IMG/VR virus record: IMGVR_UViG_2754412344_000002
Location: 1,647-65,646 of that record
From: a virus
Strand: one strand, 5' to 3'
DNA length: 64,000 nt
Shown here piece by piece: positions 5,285 through 37,212 of the stretch. The notes below the pieces were generated by a model, which saw only the letters and a program-made list of their open reading frames with translations, had not been told where the DNA came from and ran no database searches. Made by a program: the position numbers and the translations under genes. How positions within the stretch are numbered: the first letter of the stretch is position 1; each line of letters starts with the position of its first letter.

Positions 5285-6402
5285 TCGGACGACGCAAACG
5301 GCCGGACGGATTGCCCTTCCGGCTCTACGCCCACTACGGGAAGCACAAGGTCAGCTTCGGCTACAAGCTGCCGACTGGTCGCTGGGCGTTCCGCCTCTCG
5401 GCGCCCGCACGCCACAAGGATGCGATCGCGGAGATCCGCAAACAGGCGATCGAACGCGCGGAAGCGCTCAACGGAGACGCTGTCGAGCCGGGCACGTTCG
5501 AGGCACTCGCCGACGCATATTTCGACTGGCAAGAGGGTCTGCCGCATACCGACGAACGCCGGAAGGCGCAGATCACCCTCGACGAAAACCGAAACGAGCT
5601 GAAACGCCTCGTCGCCGTCTTCGGCAAGATGTCGCCGGCCGCCATCAAGCCGAAGCACGTCTACGGGTACCTCGACAAGCGCGCGCAGATGGGCGCGCCG
5701 GCGAAGGCGAACAAGGAAGTCGCCCTATTGTCCGCCATACTCGAATTCGGCCGGCGCCGCGGCGAGGTCGAAACGAACCCGTGCCGCGGCATTGAATACA
5801 ACCCGACGCGGCCGCGCCAACGCTATGTGCGGCAGGACGAAATCGATCTTGCGGTGGAAGTCGCGCGGTCGCGCCGGAGCGTCGGCGACCAGCACCCGAG
5901 TTCCGCGTACTTGATTCTCGCGCTTTGCGTGAAGGCAGCCTATCTGACCGTCAGCCGGCCGACCGAGATGCGGGAACTGCATCGTCAGAGTATCCGGCCC
6001 GAAGGCGTCGAGGTGCCGATCGGAAAGCGAAAGGCCGGCGAGCAGCAGCGCGTGAAACTCGTCCTGTGGTCACCGGAGTTGAAGGCGGTGATCGATGAAG
6101 CGCTGGCCCTGCAGCGCACGTCGAGCGTGCACGTGTTCGGGAACACGGCCGGCCAGGTGTACACGCGCAGCGGATGGAACACGAACTGGTCGCGGCTGAT
6201 GGGCTACTGCGAGAAGGAGGCGCAGGCGCGCGGCGTGCCGTTCGAGCGCTTCGCACTGCGCGACATGCGGCCGGCCGCCGTGACCGATCGCCAAGAGGAA
6301 GGCGACGATCGCATCATCGACGCGACCGGCCATGCAGACGAACGTATGGTGCGGAAGACATACGACCGACGCCGACAGAGGAAAGTGCGAGCGACGCGCT
6401 AA
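5281..6402 (+). CDS. int: Tyrosine recombinase (phage integrase)
   Basis: RPTEMR, LRDMR, TGH and terminal TYDRR catalytic-type motifs; adjacent to tRNA-His. Confidence 0.9.
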   Translation: MIGRRKRPDGLPFRLYAHYGKHKVSFGYKLPTGRWAFRLSAPARHKDAIAEIRKQAIERAEALNGDAVEPGTFEALADAYFDWQEGLPHTDERRKAQITLDENRNELKRLVAVFGKMSPAAIKPKHVYGYLDKRAQMGAPAKANKEVALLSAILEFGRRRGEVETNPCRGIEYNPTRPRQRYVRQDEIDLAVEVARSRRSVGDQHPSSAYLILALCVKAAYLTVSRPTEMRELHRQSIRPEGVEVPIGKRKAGEQQRVKLVLWSPELKAVIDEALALQRTSSVHVFGNTAGQVYTRSGWNTNWSRLMGYCEKEAQARGVPFERFALRDMRPAAVTDRQEEGDDRIIDATGHADERMVRKTYDRRRQRKVRATR

Positions 6403-6914
6403 GCGGCGCCTCGTTCATCGGTACGAGGAAGCTGCGCAGCGTGTAGGCGCTCTGACATATTAGCGCATCGGACTATCGTCACCGTCGCCGACGCAATACA
6501 CAAAATAGACAAGAGCCCGGAAAAGATACCAAATACTTGCACCGCAACAAGCGCGAAAGCGCTAACGTCCCCCATCAATCCATGCTTTGCGGCGTAATGC
6601 GTCGCAATTGAGAAAAGCATTATTAAGAGGCCTGACACTGCCTGGATCGTGGCCAGCGTGGCGCGATGACGCCCTCTCATTTCAGCTTGGAAACACAGGT
6701 CACGCAACCCAGGGTCCGTCTGGAGCAGTGCGACTTGCGCCTCGAATGACTCGCGCGCAGCTTTGCTTCGCAGCGTCCATTTCCCCCAAGCCCTTTTAGC
6801 GAGCTTATCGAGGCCGTCCTTAATGTACATCCCGAAGAGCCCGAGAATCACTACACCGACTGCAGATGAGACCCACCATGCTGAAGAGAGGATGGTCGAC
6901 TGTACGAAAGACAT
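6399..6914 (-). CDS. Membrane protein (about 3 TM) between integrase and att
   Basis: 171 aa from MSFVQ; hydrophobic stretches at N-terminus and ~aa 88-150; GGGGAG RBS; lower GC. Confidence 0.65.
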   Translation of the reverse strand: MSFVQSTILSSAWWVSSAVGVVILGLFGMYIKDGLDKLAKRAWGKWTLRSKAARESFEAQVALLQTDPGLRDLCFQAEMRGRHRATLATIQAVSGLLIMLFSIATHYAAKHGLMGDVSAFALVAVQVFGIFSGLLSILCIASATVTIVRCANMSERLHAAQLPRTDERGAA

Positions 6915-6936
6915 CTTTTTGCTGCTCCCCGGATGC

Positions 6937-6964
6937 AAAAAAGCCCGCTCATCGGCGGGCTTTT
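6937..6964. terminator. Bidirectional intrinsic terminator downstream of tRNA-His
   Basis: AAAAAAGCCCGC-TCATCG-GCGGGCTTTT. Confidence 0.75.
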
Positions 6965-6970
6965 GTTTCA

Positions 6971-7004
6971 TCATCTTCCAAATTTTGGAATCTCATCTTC
7001 CAAA
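6971..7004. repeat. Direct repeat TCATCTTCCAAA x2, candidate integrase arm-type sites
   Basis: Copies at 6971-6982 and 6993-7004 (22-bp period) just inside the att end. Confidence 0.5.
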
Positions 7005-7050
7005 ACTTGTAACACGTCAGCTTGTTTTTGCTGCAAGTGCTTGAATTCGT

Positions 7051-7127
7051 TGGGGTGGCTGATGGGACTCGAACCCACGACAACAGGAATCACAATCCTG
7101 GACTCTACCAACTGAGCTACAGCCACC
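7051..7127 (-). tRNA. tRNA-His (GTG), host; att site of prophage 1
   Basis: GGTGGCTGTAGCTCAGTTGGTAGAGTCCAGGATTGTGATTCCTGTTGTCGTGGGTTCGAGTCCCATCAGCCACCCCA, 77 nt with G-1 and CCA. Confidence 0.97.
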
Positions 7128-7185
7128 ACTGATACCGCTTTGTTTCTTCGCTGTTTCGTTTCGTGTTCAGCAGCGAAGAACAAGA

Positions 7186-8220
7186 TTATACGAAGACTTT
7201 TCCATCTTGCAAAGCATTTTTTTCAAAATTTTCGAGAGCGTCGTTCAGATGCGTACGCGCCTCGTCGAACACGGCCAGATCGCCGCGCGCGAGCTTCTTG
7301 TTGTCCGACAGCACGCGACGCCAGCCGCGCGCCCCCGCGACGCCGCGATACAGCCCGAGTGCGTGCCGGACGATCGCGCCGAGATACGTGCCGCGCTTCA
7401 GCTCCGCCGCGCAGTATTCGATCAGTTTCGCCTCGGCCTCTTCGCGCGTCGGCGCGGCGGCGGTCGCTCCATAGAAGCGCGCATCGACTTCGGCGAGCAC
7501 GTACGGGTTGTGATACGCCTCACGGCCGAGCATCACGCCGTCCACATGCTCGAGATGCTGCGCGACTTCATCCAGCGTCTTGATGCCGCCGTTGATCACG
7601 ATCTCCAGCGACGGGAAATCGCGCTTCAGCCGGTACGCATAGTCGTACTTGAGCGGCGGAATCTCACGATTCTCCTTCGGCGAAAGCCCCTTCAGGATCG
7701 CATTGCGCGCGTGCACGACGAACGTCTGGCAGCCCGCCTCGGCTACCGTGCCGACGAAGTCCCGCACGAACGCGTAGTCCTCGACCGCATCGACCCCGAT
7801 CCGATGCTTGACCGTGACCGGCACCGACACCGCATCGCGCATCGCCTTCACGCAATCGGCGACGAGCTGCGGCTCGTTCATCAGGCACGCGCCGAACGCA
7901 CCGCGCTGCACGCGTTCGGACGGACAGCCGCAATTCAGGTTGATCTCGTCATAGCCCCATTGCTCGCCGAGTTTCGCGGCGCGTGCGAGATCGTCCGGTT
8001 CGCTGCCGCCCAGCTGAAGCGCGATCGGCGATTCGTTCGGCGTGAACGCGAGATGTCGCTGGGCGTCGCCGAACAACAGCGCGCCCGTCGTGATCATTTC
8101 CGTATACAGCCACGTGTCGCGCGTCAGCGTGCGATGGAACGACCGGCAATGACGGTCGGTCCAGTCGAGCATGGGGGCTACAGCTACCTTGCGACCTTTG
8201 AATTTTCGAGAAACTTCCAT
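7186..8220 (-). CDS. dusA: tRNA-dihydrouridine(20/20a) synthase DusA with phage-supplied N-terminus
   Basis: APMLDWTDRHCR, NLNCGCPSERVQ, VTVKHRIG, VHARNAIL, GVMLGREAY motifs; first ~15 codons AT-rich. Confidence 0.95.
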   Translation of the reverse strand: MEVSRKFKGRKVAVAPMLDWTDRHCRSFHRTLTRDTWLYTEMITTGALLFGDAQRHLAFTPNESPIALQLGGSEPDDLARAAKLGEQWGYDEINLNCGCPSERVQRGAFGACLMNEPQLVADCVKAMRDAVSVPVTVKHRIGVDAVEDYAFVRDFVGTVAEAGCQTFVVHARNAILKGLSPKENREIPPLKYDYAYRLKRDFPSLEIVINGGIKTLDEVAQHLEHVDGVMLGREAYHNPYVLAEVDARFYGATAAAPTREEAEAKLIEYCAAELKRGTYLGAIVRHALGLYRGVAGARGWRRVLSDNKKLARGDLAVFDEARTHLNDALENFEKNALQDGKVFV

Positions 8221-8346
8221 AAAATCAATGCCATGAGGCCAAATTTGCTACGTGGCAATTTACCGACACTACCCTCGATTTACTGCCATTTCACCTTTCT
8301 GTGCTACAGAATTGCTACAATCGCCTCGCTCACAAGCGAGGTGGCG

Positions 8347-9363
8347 ATGGCATCCATCCTGAAGATCGGCGAAAAGTGGCGTGCACAAGTCAGACGAAAA
8401 GGGCATCCGCCGCTCACGCGGACCTTCGACAGGCGCAAGCATGCCGAGGACTGGGCCCGCAGCGTCGAAGAAGAGATGCGCGCCGGCAAGTTCGCCGATG
8501 AGCGAAAACTGGCCGATATTACCATCCCCAAGCTCATCGAAAGATATGAGGAAGAAGTCGGCAAACACAAGCCGATTGGTCGGTCCAAGCTCGGGGCGCT
8601 CAATTTCCTGAAGGCGGGACTGGCCGATAAGACGCTGGCTAGTCTCGACGCGCACGCGGTCATTGATTACGCCAAGAAACGCAGAGCGGCCGGCGCGGGC
8701 GGCGTAACCATTGGACTCGAGATGACATATCTCGGGAACGTCCTACGCATTGCCCGCACCGTCCTGAAAATCCCGATCACGGCGACTCCCGTCGAAGAAG
8801 CGCGCCCCTCCCTTAAATTTCTGACGCTTGTCTCGAAATCTCAGGAGCGCGACCGGCGTCCGACGGATGAGGAAATCATCGCGCTTTGCAAACATTTTGA
8901 TAGCAAGGCTCGGCAGCGCGTTCCCATGTCTGACATCATCCGATTTGCCATTGCCACGGCCATGCGGGCCAGCGAGATCACCGCCATCCGTTGGGATGAC
9001 CTCAATGAACAGGACCGCACCATTATCATCCGCGACCGCAAGCATCCGAACGAGAAGATAGGCAACAATCAAACGGTCCCGCTACTCGGTGAAGCCTTCG
9101 AGATTGTCAAGCGCCAGCCAAAATCCGCCGATGGCCGCATCTTCCCCTATAACGAGAAGACATTTTCGACGATCTTTCCGCGGGCTTGCGCCGAGTTGAA
9201 GATCGTCGATCTGCGGTTCCATGATCTGCGACACGAAGGCATCTCAAGGTTGTTCGAACAGGGCTATCGTATAGAGCAGGTTGCTTTGGTCAGCGGGCAC
9301 CGAGAATGGAAGATGTTGAGACGCTACACGCAGGTCAAGGCGAAAGACCTGCATCGCAGCTAG
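8347..9363 (+). CDS. int: DusA-associated integrase (tyrosine recombinase)
   Basis: MASILKIGEKWRAQVRRKG start; TAMRASEI, FHDLRHEGISRLFE, SGH, LRRY motifs; divergent from dusA. Confidence 0.93.
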   Translation: MASILKIGEKWRAQVRRKGHPPLTRTFDRRKHAEDWARSVEEEMRAGKFADERKLADITIPKLIERYEEEVGKHKPIGRSKLGALNFLKAGLADKTLASLDAHAVIDYAKKRRAAGAGGVTIGLEMTYLGNVLRIARTVLKIPITATPVEEARPSLKFLTLVSKSQERDRRPTDEEIIALCKHFDSKARQRVPMSDIIRFAIATAMRASEITAIRWDDLNEQDRTIIIRDRKHPNEKIGNNQTVPLLGEAFEIVKRQPKSADGRIFPYNEKTFSTIFPRACAELKIVDLRFHDLRHEGISRLFEQGYRIEQVALVSGHREWKMLRRYTQVKAKDLHRS

Positions 9364-21026: not shown

Positions 21027-21477
21027 GGCATCACCAGTGTTTCGAGATGAAGTGAAAAACAACGTAGATCAACCCACCCCAAAACGTCAGAGCGACCATC
21101 GCCCAAACAAGAGCCACTGCGATGATTCCTTTCATGTTGCCTCCTTGACATACTGGTTGTATGCCGGCCACGCGTATTCCACATAACCGGACACTGCGTA
21201 TGAAATGGCTGCGGCGATTTCGTCCATGGCTTTCTTGTCGCCAGCGTCTCGTGCTGCTTCATACGCTCGGCGAAGCTTGCTTATGTCCATGGCGTTACCT
21301 CGCGCTTTTCTGGCCGACGCCGTGACTTACGGGCGCGGAATGTGACGAAATTTTCTGAACTCGCGATACACGGCCCAACCGTACAAACCGAGCGATGCAA
21401 GCAATGCTGATAGCGCGACGTACATTTGCAGTCCTAAATCAGTGACGGATAGATCGGTCGCATCAACACCGCTTCAG

Positions 21478-22857
21478 TTACTGCTCTGCTTCGAGCGTCT
21501 GGATGAACTTGACAACCGCTTCGCTGAAGCCGTCAATCTTCGTCCACGATCCATACCCGACGCCATTTTGGTGCGAGGCGACATTTATCATGTAGCCCCG
21601 CGCTGTGGGGTTGCCCACGGGATCATAAGACTGCTCATCGGTGATAACGATCAGGCGGTCTGCCGGAATCGTGTTGGCCGCACGAACCGCAGCACCAAGA
21701 TAGGTTCCGCCGTGAGGTTGTGACAGAACGATTGCATCGATGAGGCCCATGCCATATCGCGGGGGGACTTCAACAATTTGGCCGGAGAATGTGAACACCC
21801 GTGTCTCCGGGCAAATTCCGCGAACCAGAACGGCCAATGCCGCCGCCGCATCCAGTCGACTGAGATCTGATTTCAACGAAAGTGGCGCGTCCATCGATCC
21901 AGATACGTCAACCAAGACGTTCGTGCGCCCACCCATCGGAGCGAAGGAGCGCATCGCCTCCATCATTGCCGCATCGATCATTGGTTCCCACTGCTTTACC
22001 GCTCGTGCTGCCGCGACAAATCGAAAAGGCAGCGCATTGGAACGCGGAGCACCTTCGGTCAAACGCTGCTTGACCAACTCCACGTTGACACCGGAATCGG
22101 CCATGTTCCGCAGATTTCGAAGGAGCGCCAGATAGCCGAGCTTGTTTTCGCCCAGCAGTCGCTCAAAAGTTTCGCGTTTTTCAGCGCCGCCCGAAAGAGC
22201 GACCTCCCAAGTATCCGGCGTATCCAATGTCCGATCTGCGATCTGTCGATACAGGCGTTCATCGCGAGACAATTTGGGCGTTGCGTTCAATCGCCGCTCT
22301 TCTGCCCGCTCCGCTTTCGTGTAGTGACGCTCCGAATCTTTCGGCCGCGCATGGCTCAAGAACAGCGCATCGCGAAGTTTTACAGTGGTCCCGCGATCAT
22401 ACTTCGCGAACTGATAAGCATCGAACTTGCGAAACGCTCCAGCCAACCCCAGCTTAACCTGCTTGCTCACGGGGCATTTCCCATCTTGCCAGTAGATCGC
22501 CAAGAACTCGGCGATTTCGTCTGCTCGTTGGATAACACGAGTAAGCGTCTTCCCGACGATAGCGCCAGTGTTTTTGCGTCGTGCCATTTCTCGGACAAGA
22601 AGCAGCGGCGCATGGCGGAGTTTCATGTCCTCACGCGCTTCGACTGCCAATTTTGCGACATCTTCAAGATCACATTGCGCCACAAGCGTTTTGATTCGCT
22701 CCGCAATGCTCTCCCCGCTCTCATAGAAATTGCTCTCCCACAAGAGGCAGGCCATAACCGTGCGACGTAGTTGCTGAATTGGCTTTACATGAAGCGACGC
22801 TGGCGCCCCTTCGTGCGTATAGACCTTCGGGGTAGATGCGTTCGAATTGATTTTCAC
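21478..22857 (-). CDS. rsr: Ro60-like RNA-binding protein (TROVE + vWA)
   Basis: THEGAPA, LRR..MACLLWE..FYESG, FDAYQFAKY, LDTPDTWE, LGYLALLRNLRNM, vWA MIDAS DVSGSM and VITDEQ; AAGGAG RBS, GTG start. Confidence 0.93.
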   Translation of the reverse strand: MKINSNASTPKVYTHEGAPASLHVKPIQQLRRTVMACLLWESNFYESGESIAERIKTLVAQCDLEDVAKLAVEAREDMKLRHAPLLLVREMARRKNTGAIVGKTLTRVIQRADEIAEFLAIYWQDGKCPVSKQVKLGLAGAFRKFDAYQFAKYDRGTTVKLRDALFLSHARPKDSERHYTKAERAEERRLNATPKLSRDERLYRQIADRTLDTPDTWEVALSGGAEKRETFERLLGENKLGYLALLRNLRNMADSGVNVELVKQRLTEGAPRSNALPFRFVAAARAVKQWEPMIDAAMMEAMRSFAPMGGRTNVLVDVSGSMDAPLSLKSDLSRLDAAAALAVLVRGICPETRVFTFSGQIVEVPPRYGMGLIDAIVLSQPHGGTYLGAAVRAANTIPADRLIVITDEQSYDPVGNPTARGYMINVASHQNGVGYGSWTKIDGFSEAVVKFIQTLEAEQ

Positions 22858-22869
22858 TACTTCTCCTTA

Positions 22870-22930
22870 GCGGGAACAAGCAGCAACGGGTAGATTTCAT
22901 AGCAAGAAGTAACCGTTACCTTCACCACGC
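22870..22930 (-). ncRNA. Y-RNA-like gene 1 (short, YrlB-like)
   Basis: GCGTGGTGAAGGTAACGGTTACTTC...CCGTTGCTGCTTGTTCCCGC; terminal stem shared with units 2 and 3; abuts rsr. Confidence 0.75.
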
Positions 22931-22945
22931 AAACTTAAATTCATG

Positions 22946-23067
22946 GGGCAACAAGCGAAGCGAGTACGTTTAGCGCTCTACCAACTGAGCTACGGCCTTT
23001 CAGCCGGCTGGACTCGAACCAGCGACCTCTCGATTAGCAGTCGAAGGAACTCGCTTCTACGGCACCC
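22946..23067 (-). ncRNA. yrlA: YrlA-like Y RNA with circularly permuted tRNA module
   Basis: Terminal stem GAAGCGAGT/ACTCGCTTC enclosing anticodon hairpin, AGGTC, T arm GCTGG-TTCGAGT-CCAGC, loop-closed acceptor CGGC-TGAAAG-GCCG and D arm GCTC-AGTTGGTA-GAGC. Confidence 0.88.
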
Positions 23068-23079
23068 AAACAAAATCCT

Positions 23080-23169
23080 GCGGGAACAGACCAGAGCGGA
23101 ACATGAGCGCGCAGATCGAAATCCCGCCTTCTCGCTCCCATAGCGAAGTAACCGCGCTGTACGCCACGC
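23080..23169 (-). ncRNA. Y-RNA-like gene 3
   Basis: GCGTGGCGTACAGCGCGGTTACTTC...CCGCTCTGGTCTGTTCCCGC; same end motifs as units 1 and 2. Confidence 0.75.
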
Positions 23170-23173
23170 AATC

Positions 23174-23559
23174 GCAAGATTTCAGAGAATGCACTGCATA
23201 CAATGCACTCCCTGCAATCTTGCCCACATCAGCGCCGGCTACACCCTGCTATGCAGGCTCCGGCTGCCGATGTGAGTCTTCAACTACCGTCATCGTTCTT
23301 TAGCGCCTCTGGACGCCAGGCGATGGGGTAGTAGCCGCTGATCTTCGGTTCTTCTCAGGAGTAGCGGATTGAGCCCTGTGCCTATCCGCCCTTTCGGGCC
23401 ATTGGCATGTTCTATCTCTTGTGTTGTGGATCGAATGTCGTCAGGGCTGGCGGCTGCCTGTGCAGTCCCAAGGCCGGCCAGCTTCCCCGCCGCGTGTCGC
23501 AGCAGGCTTGGCTTGCAATGTCAGCGCTCAGCCACCAGCCCTGACTAACATTCGTCCAC
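23174..23559 (-). ncRNA. Highly structured non-coding leader of the leftward early transcript
   Basis: Consecutive long hairpins 23174-23223, 23225-23274, 23426-23559 and a GCCC-GAAA-GGGC hairpin at 23388-23399. Confidence 0.55.
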
Positions 23560-37055: not shown

Positions 37056-37134
37056 CTGAGTGTAATGTCAGTCCGGTTAGACGGCCTGCTTTGGAAGCAG
37101 GAGGCCGAAGGTTCAAATCCTTCCACTCAGACCA
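37056..37134 (+). tRNA. tRNA-Pro (TGG)
   Basis: CTGAGTG/CACTCAG acceptor, CCTGC-TTTGGAA-GCAGG, GTTCAAATC T loop, ACCA. Confidence 0.9.
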
Positions 37135-37138
37135 TATT

Positions 37139-37212
37139 GCGGGCTTGGCCGATCGGTTAGGCCGTGGCCTTCCAAGCCATTCAGGCGAGTTCAATTCTCG
37201 CAGCCCGCTCCA
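37139..37212 (+). tRNA. tRNA-Gly (TCC)
   Basis: GCGGGCT/AGCCCGC acceptor, TGGC-CTTCCAA-GCCA, GTTCAATTC, TCCA end. Confidence 0.92.

Follow-up and report, generated by a model that had tools for sequence, protein, structure and literature searches.

Is the open reading frame that follows directly on three small non-coding units in a prophage genome indeed a Ro60 gene with its own Y RNAs, and, if so, how unusual is such a locus? This question is raised by positions 21478-23169 of a 64,000-nucleotide stretch of viral DNA (positions 1,647 to 65,646 of the IMG/VR record IMGVR_UViG_2754412344_000002), referred to below as the window. An earlier note on this DNA, made from the letters alone, had proposed a Ro60 (TROVE) protein with three tandem Y-RNA-like genes directly upstream. 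The annotation can be regarded as settled: the 1.7-kb stretch consists of a Ro60 gene and three Y-RNA genes.

A full-length Ro60 gene and three upstream RNA units

The open reading frame at 21478-22857 (minus strand) encodes a full-length Ro60 protein of 459 amino acids with TROVE and vWA domains. Translation starts with GTG at 22857, and a Shine-Dalgarno sequence (AAGGAG, 22863-22868, minus strand), read from the sequence, is located 5 nt ahead of it. The Pfam family TROVE (PF05731) matches with 51.6 bits at a cut-off of 23, the match being confined to residues 211-291, while vWA_Ro60 (23.0 bits) and VWA_2 (22.7 bits) fall slightly under their cut-offs. PHROG 850 matches the reading frame from end to end (E = 5e-44). 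The nearest solved relative is phiRo60 of Thermus phage phiLo (PDB entries 9KOP and 9L5Y), which aligned with residues 13-456 in a single-sequence search (E = 1.1e-28) and over the full length with a profile of eight sequences (E = 1.7e-49). Alignments also revealed the MIDAS (metal-ion-dependent adhesion site) motif of the vWA domain, D317-x-S319-x-S321 (VDVSGSM, 21895-21909, minus strand). Its three residues are invariant in alignments of 8 and 52 homologs and align with DVSGSM of phiRo60, in keeping with the DxSxS pattern of vWA domains.

An AlphaFold2 model of the 459-residue protein (pLDDT 87.6, pTM 0.83) shows the Ro60 fold, a ring of HEAT repeats closed by the vWA domain. The 13 best matches of this model in a Foldseek search of the PDB are all Ro60 proteins (from phiLo, human, Xenopus and Deinococcus) with TM-scores of 0.65-0.69. 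The protein belongs to a large family with 355 relatives in IMG/VR. In the protein database at least 8000 clusters are related to it at E ≤ 1e-30, a figure that equals the number of candidates scored (the 8000 sharing most words), all of which passed.

For the RNA units we built a covariance model, R1, from 47 short units beside Ro60 genes of other phages; the window was left out. Searching the 64-kb window with R1 resulted in exactly three matches, all on the minus strand, with the next best at E = 0.82. The first, u1 (22869-22931; 64.1 bits, E = 1.7e-15), is a short, YrlB-like Y RNA, the second, u2 (22944-23068; 45.0 bits, E = 3.5e-10), a Y RNA of the YrlA type and the third, u3 (23079-23170; 48.9 bits, E = 3e-11), a Y RNA with a truncated tRNA-like head. 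Each unit matches the model over its full length (positions 1-66), and the positions agree with those of the earlier note to within 1-2 nt. The units are situated 12-313 nt upstream of the Ro60 start and on the same strand, i.e. inside the 4-kb, same-strand neighborhood that was used as a criterion for YrlA (PMC4201824). They are separated by A/U-rich spacers of 10 and 12 nt, and the 3' end of u1 lies 1-2 nt ahead of the Ro60 Shine-Dalgarno sequence.

R1 replaced a hand-written filter (motif plus 3-bp end stem), which in its first form gave about 40 background matches in the window and was then tightened. In 512 kb the tightened filter found 145 matches on the Ro60 strand versus 19 on the opposite strand, and 118 of the 145 were within 500 nt upstream of Ro60. 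Applied to homologous loci, R1 detected 220 units in 86 loci; all 220 are on the Ro60 strand and nearly all less than 500 nt upstream. The three units thus belong to one structured RNA family tied to Ro60 genes.

One RNA base with three different heads

The units share a common plan. An end stem of 3-14 bp, not conserved in sequence, is followed by a bulged U and two base pairs, usually GG/CC. Next comes an internal loop with UGGYGNAG on the 5' side opposite GYUUGUU on the 3' side, and then a covarying stem of 8-9 bp and the sequence UUACUUC. The consensus of this base in the clade is UGGYGNAG ... UUACUUC ... GYUUGUUCC. In the seed alignment 95.7% of the pair cells hold standard pairs and 221 cells are changed on both sides, which none of 500 shuffles reached; as a control, sliding the partner by 1-3 columns left 40-52% paired. 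Covariation is found in every pair of the second stem and in five of the six end-stem pairs. Since the seed filter demanded pairing, the percentage of paired cells in the seed is partly built in. Free of this filter bias are the strand and position bias, the R1 matches on units that the filter missed (u3, for instance) and an alignment of 150 hits, which is 94.9% paired with 638 double changes and was itself fitted to R1, leaning towards the structure. The two-base-pair element covaries as well, occurring as GG/CC, GC/GC (in u2), GU/AC and GA/UC and occasionally, in the 150-hit set, as AG/CU; in that set the first pair is A-U in 9 distinct rows. The complementary segments quoted in the earlier note as stems are real. 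AACGG/CCGUU lies within the second helix, GGUAACGG/CCGUUGCU, and GAAGCGAGU/ACUCGCUUC is likewise present as a second helix.

Two published motifs of YrlA can be compared with this base: GNCGAAN0-1G near the 5' end, a presumed point of contact with Ro60 that also occurs in YrlB and Yrn1, and YUAY, which precedes the hairpin ahead of the T arm (PMC4201824). Judged by sequence, UGGYGNAG appears to be the clade form of GNCGAAN0-1G, and UUAC corresponds to YUAY. The UA is the conserved dinucleotide discussed in the paper on the YrlA crystal structure (10.1101/312249). The consensus of the base is specific to this clade: R1 gave no match at more distant phage Ro60 loci, namely those of Ralstonia phage RsoM2USA, Rhizobium phage RHph_TM39 and crAss001 (36-44% identity).

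The base of u1 is composed of a GCG/CGC end stem, the bulged U, GG/CC, UGGUGAAG opposite GCUUGUU, an 8-bp stem and UUAC. Its head is a 3-bp hairpin with a 7-nt, pyrimidine-rich loop (UUGCUAU) and contains neither a T nor a D arm. The centroid fold recovers the end stem, the 8-bp stem and the 3-bp hairpin. This architecture fits the YrlB/Yrn2 type, described as an extended hairpin whose small loop is rich in pyrimidines. No curated sequence family exists for these short Y RNAs.

In u2 the base is the same except for GC/GC in place of GG/CC. According to the minimum free energy (MFE) fold, the head comprises a hairpin, a 5-nt linker, a T arm (GCUGG-UUCGAGU-CCAGC), a closed, acceptor-like hairpin (CGGCU-GAAA-GGCCG), the dinucleotide UA and a D arm (GCUC-AGUUGGUA-GAGC). 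The tRNA-like module of YrlA is therefore present in u2 but not in u1 or u3. The hairpin before the T arm, within 22990-23045 (minus strand), combines a 5-bp stem with a 7-nt loop (CUGCUAA) and is followed by the linker AGGUC. The Rfam tRNA model takes it for the anticodon arm plus variable loop; the corresponding hairpin of YrlA was placed at the variable-arm position by Chen et al. (PMC4201824). The layout of u2 agrees with a published proposal that derives YrlA from a dimeric tRNA transcript (10.1101/312249).

This resemblance raises an alternative: the array would consist of tRNA genes in decay, or would serve tRNA processing, and the ends shared by the units would be processing signals unrelated to Ro60. 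At Rfam gathering thresholds, a partial tRNA match (32.2 bits, 23003-23063) is indeed the only hit in u2, and public phage records list equivalent units as tRNA-Thr and tRNA-Gln. On one viral contig, described below, Y units are scattered among 20 true tRNA genes. ARAGORN, however, called no tRNA at the array. T and D arms are missing from u1, and at the acceptor position of u2 there is a closed hairpin. Moreover, the conserved ends match the published Ro60-contact motif, and the same-strand tie to Ro60 holds for 220 of 220 units when searched from the protein side and for 49 of 50 loci from the RNA side. We therefore consider a tRNA origin of this kind extremely improbable as an explanation; no unit of the array is a true tRNA gene or an empty leader.

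The third unit aligns with the first unit (A) of the closest relative, locus L009 (L009:2143-2272), with a gap of about 38 nt in u3. Missing as a result are the T arm's 3' half, the acceptor-like hairpin and the D arm; the Ro-binding base is intact. By this alignment u3 is a deletion derivative of a YrlA-type tRNA mimic. It is distinctly possible, without being probable, that only two of the three units are functional and that u3 is a decaying remnant. The lost parts of the head point in this direction, as do an MFE fold that misses the base and a C-U mismatch in the second stem. On the other hand, the Ro-binding base is fully conserved, the score of 48.9 bits is above that of u2, and other arrays also contain units of intermediate size (81-110 nt) that have no T loop, 9 of 134 distinct matches being of this kind. 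A headless unit could still bind Ro60 in the manner of the short type. The earlier note had spoken of three different RNA partners. The heads do differ, but they amount to an intact tRNA mimic, a minimal short unit and a deletion derivative of a tRNA mimic.

Extent and distribution of the cassette

Nucleotide homology to L009, whose Ro60 is 76% identical, extends from 23171 to 21512 only, that is, over the array and Ro60. The units are orthologous one for one, u1 corresponding to unit C of L009. An all-against-all BLASTP comparison of the open reading frames within 2.5 kb at 87 loci yielded no shared neighboring protein family. Other apparent families near Ro60 in this comparison were rejected as antisense reading frames inside Ro60. 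Because the array and Ro60 are all that the prophage has in common with its closest relative, we describe 23171-21478 (minus strand) as a self-contained, mobile cassette of a Y-RNA array plus Ro60 with no conserved protein partner. The lack of such a partner points to an effector supplied by the host.

Directly upstream of u3, at 23174-23228 (minus strand), a long hairpin (CAAGAUU ... AAAUCUUG) surrounds two direct copies of AGUGCAUU. As homology to L009 begins only at 23171, this hairpin is to be assigned to the host phage rather than the cassette. On the other side, about 50 nt past the Ro60 stop and on the same strand, a 32-codon reading frame (21327-21425) encodes a hydrophobic peptide (MYVALSALLASLGLYGW...).

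The earlier note had described three tandem units. We tallied units by hand at 74 non-redundant loci with at least 1 kb of upstream sequence. Two loci have a single unit, 35 have two, 27 have three, seven have four and three have five. Tandem arrays are hence the norm in this clade (at least two units at 72 of the 74 loci), and an array of three is nothing special. The lengths of the units are bimodal, approximately 60-69 nt and 120-139 nt, the long ones carrying a T loop.

R1 also found arrays in isolated phages, with five units in Xanthomonas phage 10KY502B, eight in Caulobacter phage CcrColossus and four in Brevundimonas phage Gurke. A feature annotated as tRNA-Thr in 10KY502B (L091:2292-2359) is located inside an R1 match (2290-2417) just upstream of Ro60, and a feature annotated as tRNA-Gln in CcrColossus (L092:1667-1734) is inside another (1665-1825), again just upstream of Ro60. 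Both are probably YrlA-type mimics that were annotated as tRNA genes.

The association was also examined from the RNA side by searching viral sequences for an exact 22-nt pattern with 17 specified bases. This gave 70 viral loci, 50 of them with a Ro60 homolog, which is on the same strand in 49 of the 50 and at a median distance of 231 nt downstream. Among the remaining loci, nine are chance matches of the pattern without the full module, in one (L122) Ro60 is encoded on the same record, just beyond the fetched stretch, and one, taken up again below, is a complete phage genome with a full unit and no Ro60. A 68-kb viral contig, approximately 38% complete, contains seven full Y-RNA modules among 20 true tRNA genes (L135:1657-7069, minus strand), and Ro60 is missing from both the 9.4-kb locus and the examined record. 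This arrangement suggests that Y RNAs are processed together with tRNAs in some phages.

Prophage setting, possible function and relation to known systems

The window covers most of a 66.9-kb IMG/VR provirus record that is rated complete. Around window positions 6000-8000 the G+C content falls from about 0.67 to about 0.55. The low-G+C part codes for a tyrosine integrase (Pfam match at approximately 8869-9342, gene at approximately 8300-9363, plus strand), Erf-like and RecE-like recombination proteins, a primase-helicase, the large terminase, a portal protein and the major head (coat) protein. The element is a temperate phage, as the earlier note had stated, given that integrase, recombination, replication, terminase, portal and head genes are all present. 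Two neighboring tRNA genes, Pro-UGG and Gly-UCC (37056-37212, plus strand), are found inside the prophage ahead of the terminase gene. The related Ro60 loci retrieved first are from Acidobacteriota, and the closest named protein is from Burkholderia cepacia (78%).

The prophage end is adjoined not by the integrase gene but by a gene for a dihydrouridine synthase (Pfam Dus, E = 8e-85; 7186-8220, minus strand), the integrase gene being divergent and located right at the 5' end of the Dus gene. We take this arrangement to be the layout of prophages integrated into the 5' end of dusA. In Salmonella, DusA reportedly modifies the D loop of YrlA (PMC4201824); the adjacency of dusA and this activity are probably a coincidence.

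The earlier note had placed the Ro60 locus at the start of the leftward early operon. The recombination genes are part of a block on the minus strand that extends from about 23.9 kb to about 9.8 kb. Such a block is consistent with a lambda-like leftward early operon, but the array is not strictly the first element of it. On the minus strand, a gene for a helix-turn-helix regulator (25202-24291) is followed by a terminator-like hairpin (24003-23984) just upstream of a promoter-like site (TTGACC-17-TATTAT, 23937-23909). This site, from a consensus scan, is the nearest candidate for a leftward start. Between it and the array there are a reading frame of 64 amino acids without a family match (23871-23677) and then approximately 500 nt without a convincing reading frame. 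A 12-mer, GATCGAAATCCC, occurs twice on the minus strand, at 23951-23940 just upstream of the promoter-like -35 hexamer and at 23671-23660 just past the stop of the 64-residue reading frame; it is a possible regulator binding site. The scan found no terminator-like site from the promoter-like site to Ro60 and no promoter-like site between array and Ro60.

Based on these results we propose the following explanation of the self-contained cassette of Y-RNA array and Ro60, which we consider probable. The three units and the Ro60 mRNA would most likely be made as one leftward transcript, since there is neither a terminator-like nor a promoter-like site between them and u1 stops 1-2 nt short of the ribosome-binding site of Ro60. 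Cleavage at the short A/U-rich spacers would then release the single units, as in Mycobacterium smegmatis, where YrlA and YrlB are processed from one precursor upstream of rsr (PMC4201824). The Ro60 ring is expected to bind the shared base including the bulge, and the heads, by analogy with Deinococcus, Salmonella and phiLo, may tether Ro60 to host proteins. PNPase, the partner documented elsewhere, could be one of these, and tRNA-binding enzymes are further candidates. In this way host RNA decay might be redirected or dampened early after induction, possibly as a form of counter-defense.

The short distance between u1 and the Shine-Dalgarno sequence also allows another reading, in which the units serve chiefly as cis-acting sites and not as stable small RNAs that act in trans. 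Ro60 would bind them in the 5' leader of its own mRNA and so autoregulate the translation or stability of this message. We regard this as unlikely. Its support comes from the distance of 1-2 nt between u1 and the Shine-Dalgarno sequence, from many homologous loci in which the last unit ends 11-60 nt before the tblastn match of Ro60 (near the gene start) and from the outcome of the scan between array and gene. Against it stand the loci in which the units are located downstream of Ro60 (L071) or more than 1 kb upstream behind other reading frames (L003 and L077), as well as the units of L135 inside a tRNA cluster with no Ro60 nearby. In addition, the characterized relatives are stable, processed RNAs (PMC4201824). 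Roles in cis and in trans would be compatible.

Several observations weigh against the proposed explanation. The one public sequencing run found to contain this DNA is a DNA run, which may be its source. The number of promoter-like sites is no higher than in shuffled controls, which makes the transcription start a guess. Folded as single sequences, the units are no better than shuffles (z = -1.4, -1.4 and +0.9); the support for the structure thus comes from the comparison between loci and not from folding energy. Each motif of the window differs from GNCGAAN0-1G at one position (GGUGAAG in u1, GCCGUAG in u2 and GGCGUAC in u3), and the exact motif UGGCGAAG is present in 16 of the 134 distinct R1 matches. 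The Rfam YrlA search suggested in the earlier note does find u2 (RF02553, 22949-23057, minus strand; E = 3.8e-9 in an 801-nt region), but only with an E-value threshold, the 46.6 bits being under the gathering score of 69. With its tRNA-like head lost, u3 may be decaying. Finally, one complete phage genome (record G004, 49.7 kb, rated complete) contains a full Y module (L109:2833-2896, minus strand; 61.7 bits) and no detectable Ro60. The link between RNA and protein is therefore strong and not absolute; this orphan Y RNA might use a host Ro60.

The tethering model can be extended to one of expandable adaptor arrays, which we put forward tentatively and with considerable doubt. The base would be copied two to eight times, and interchangeable heads (here a bare hairpin, a full tRNA mimic and a truncated mimic) would steer one Ro60 ring to several host RNA enzymes. 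The cassette would pass between unrelated phages as a counter-defense module, and in this prophage induction would turn it on along with the early leftward genes. Systems that act via tRNA or RNA cleavage or via PNPase-dependent steps would be examples of its targets.

Ro60 proteins of phages with Y RNAs were published in 2014, 2024 and 2025. Experiments showed that the phiLo protein associates with two Yrl RNAs encoded upstream and enters complexes with PNPase of the host, and the complex slowed PNPase in vitro (PMC12135203). Like the present locus, that of phiLo pairs a phage-encoded Ro60 with Y-RNA-like genes immediately upstream in the same orientation; among solved structures, phiRo60 is the nearest in both sequence and fold. 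Both phages are without RtcB, and phiLo is also without a PNPase of its own. The two Ro60 proteins are, however, only about 25% identical, and phiLo has two RNAs defined by a CGAA motif versus three RNAs in the window. The element described here, unlike phiLo, is a temperate prophage integrated beside dusA with host-like flanks of about 67% G+C. Another phage protein, the Ro60-like gp130 of Bas63, counters the Ppl defense system (10.1101/2024.10.10.617714). According to its published description it is encoded beside tRNA-like genes and has a demonstrated anti-defense phenotype, which matches the function guessed in the earlier note; Bas63 differs in that it is a lytic coliphage for which neither mechanism nor RNAs have been defined.

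With respect to bacterial loci, YrlA has previously been reported in 22 phages as well (PMC4201824, 10.1101/312249). Features of bacterial YrlA that recur in u2 are YUAY, the T arm with a hairpin ahead of it, a closed acceptor-like hairpin and a D arm, together with a 5' motif that resembles GNCGAAN0-1G and is one position away from it. In u1 the locus contains a second, shorter, hairpin-type RNA upstream of Ro60, as is the case for YrlB/Yrn2 of Salmonella, M. smegmatis and Deinococcus. PNPase has been shown to be a partner of Ro60 and Y RNA in Deinococcus and Salmonella. In contrast to bacterial rsr loci, the present locus has neither an rtcBA operon nor RtcR, and its YrlA-type unit remains under the Rfam gathering score. 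The earlier note's statement that RtcB and RtcA are missing can be widened: RtcB (PF01139) and RtcA (PF01137) were absent from the whole 66.9-kb provirus record, with positive results in control genomes. The locus is thus no RNA repair operon of the Rsr-Yrl-RtcBA type known from Salmonella. A further difference from bacterial Y RNAs is that the clade has a base consensus of its own, through which a homology search can also reach the short type. With Salmonella YrlB as the BLASTN query, orthologs were detected only in other serovars of S. enterica (PMC4201824).

The Ro60 loci of CcrColossus, 10KY502B and Gurke are likewise close counterparts. Their Ro60 proteins are of the same clade (46-56% identity), and the same R1 module is found in tandem upstream. 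They differ in being isolated phages with larger arrays, some units of which are annotated as tRNA genes. In the annotated record of CcrColossus (approximately 280 kb) lysis genes are located near the Ro60 locus.

Given the published PNPase complexes of phiLo and the anti-Ppl role of the Bas63 protein, the high novelty implied by the earlier note for host takeover or anti-defense is unjustified. The cassette is real and ordinary, a typical member of a widespread and partly described type that occurs in hundreds of phages. Three results are without a counterpart that we found in published work: a covariance model of the Ro-binding base that detects short, YrlB-like Y RNAs by homology, tandem arrays of two to eight units as the rule in a large clade of phage Ro60 proteins, and the travelling of array and Ro60 as a unit without a conserved protein partner. 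They leave the overall picture unchanged and make the published ideas of PNPase capture and anti-defense easier to test.

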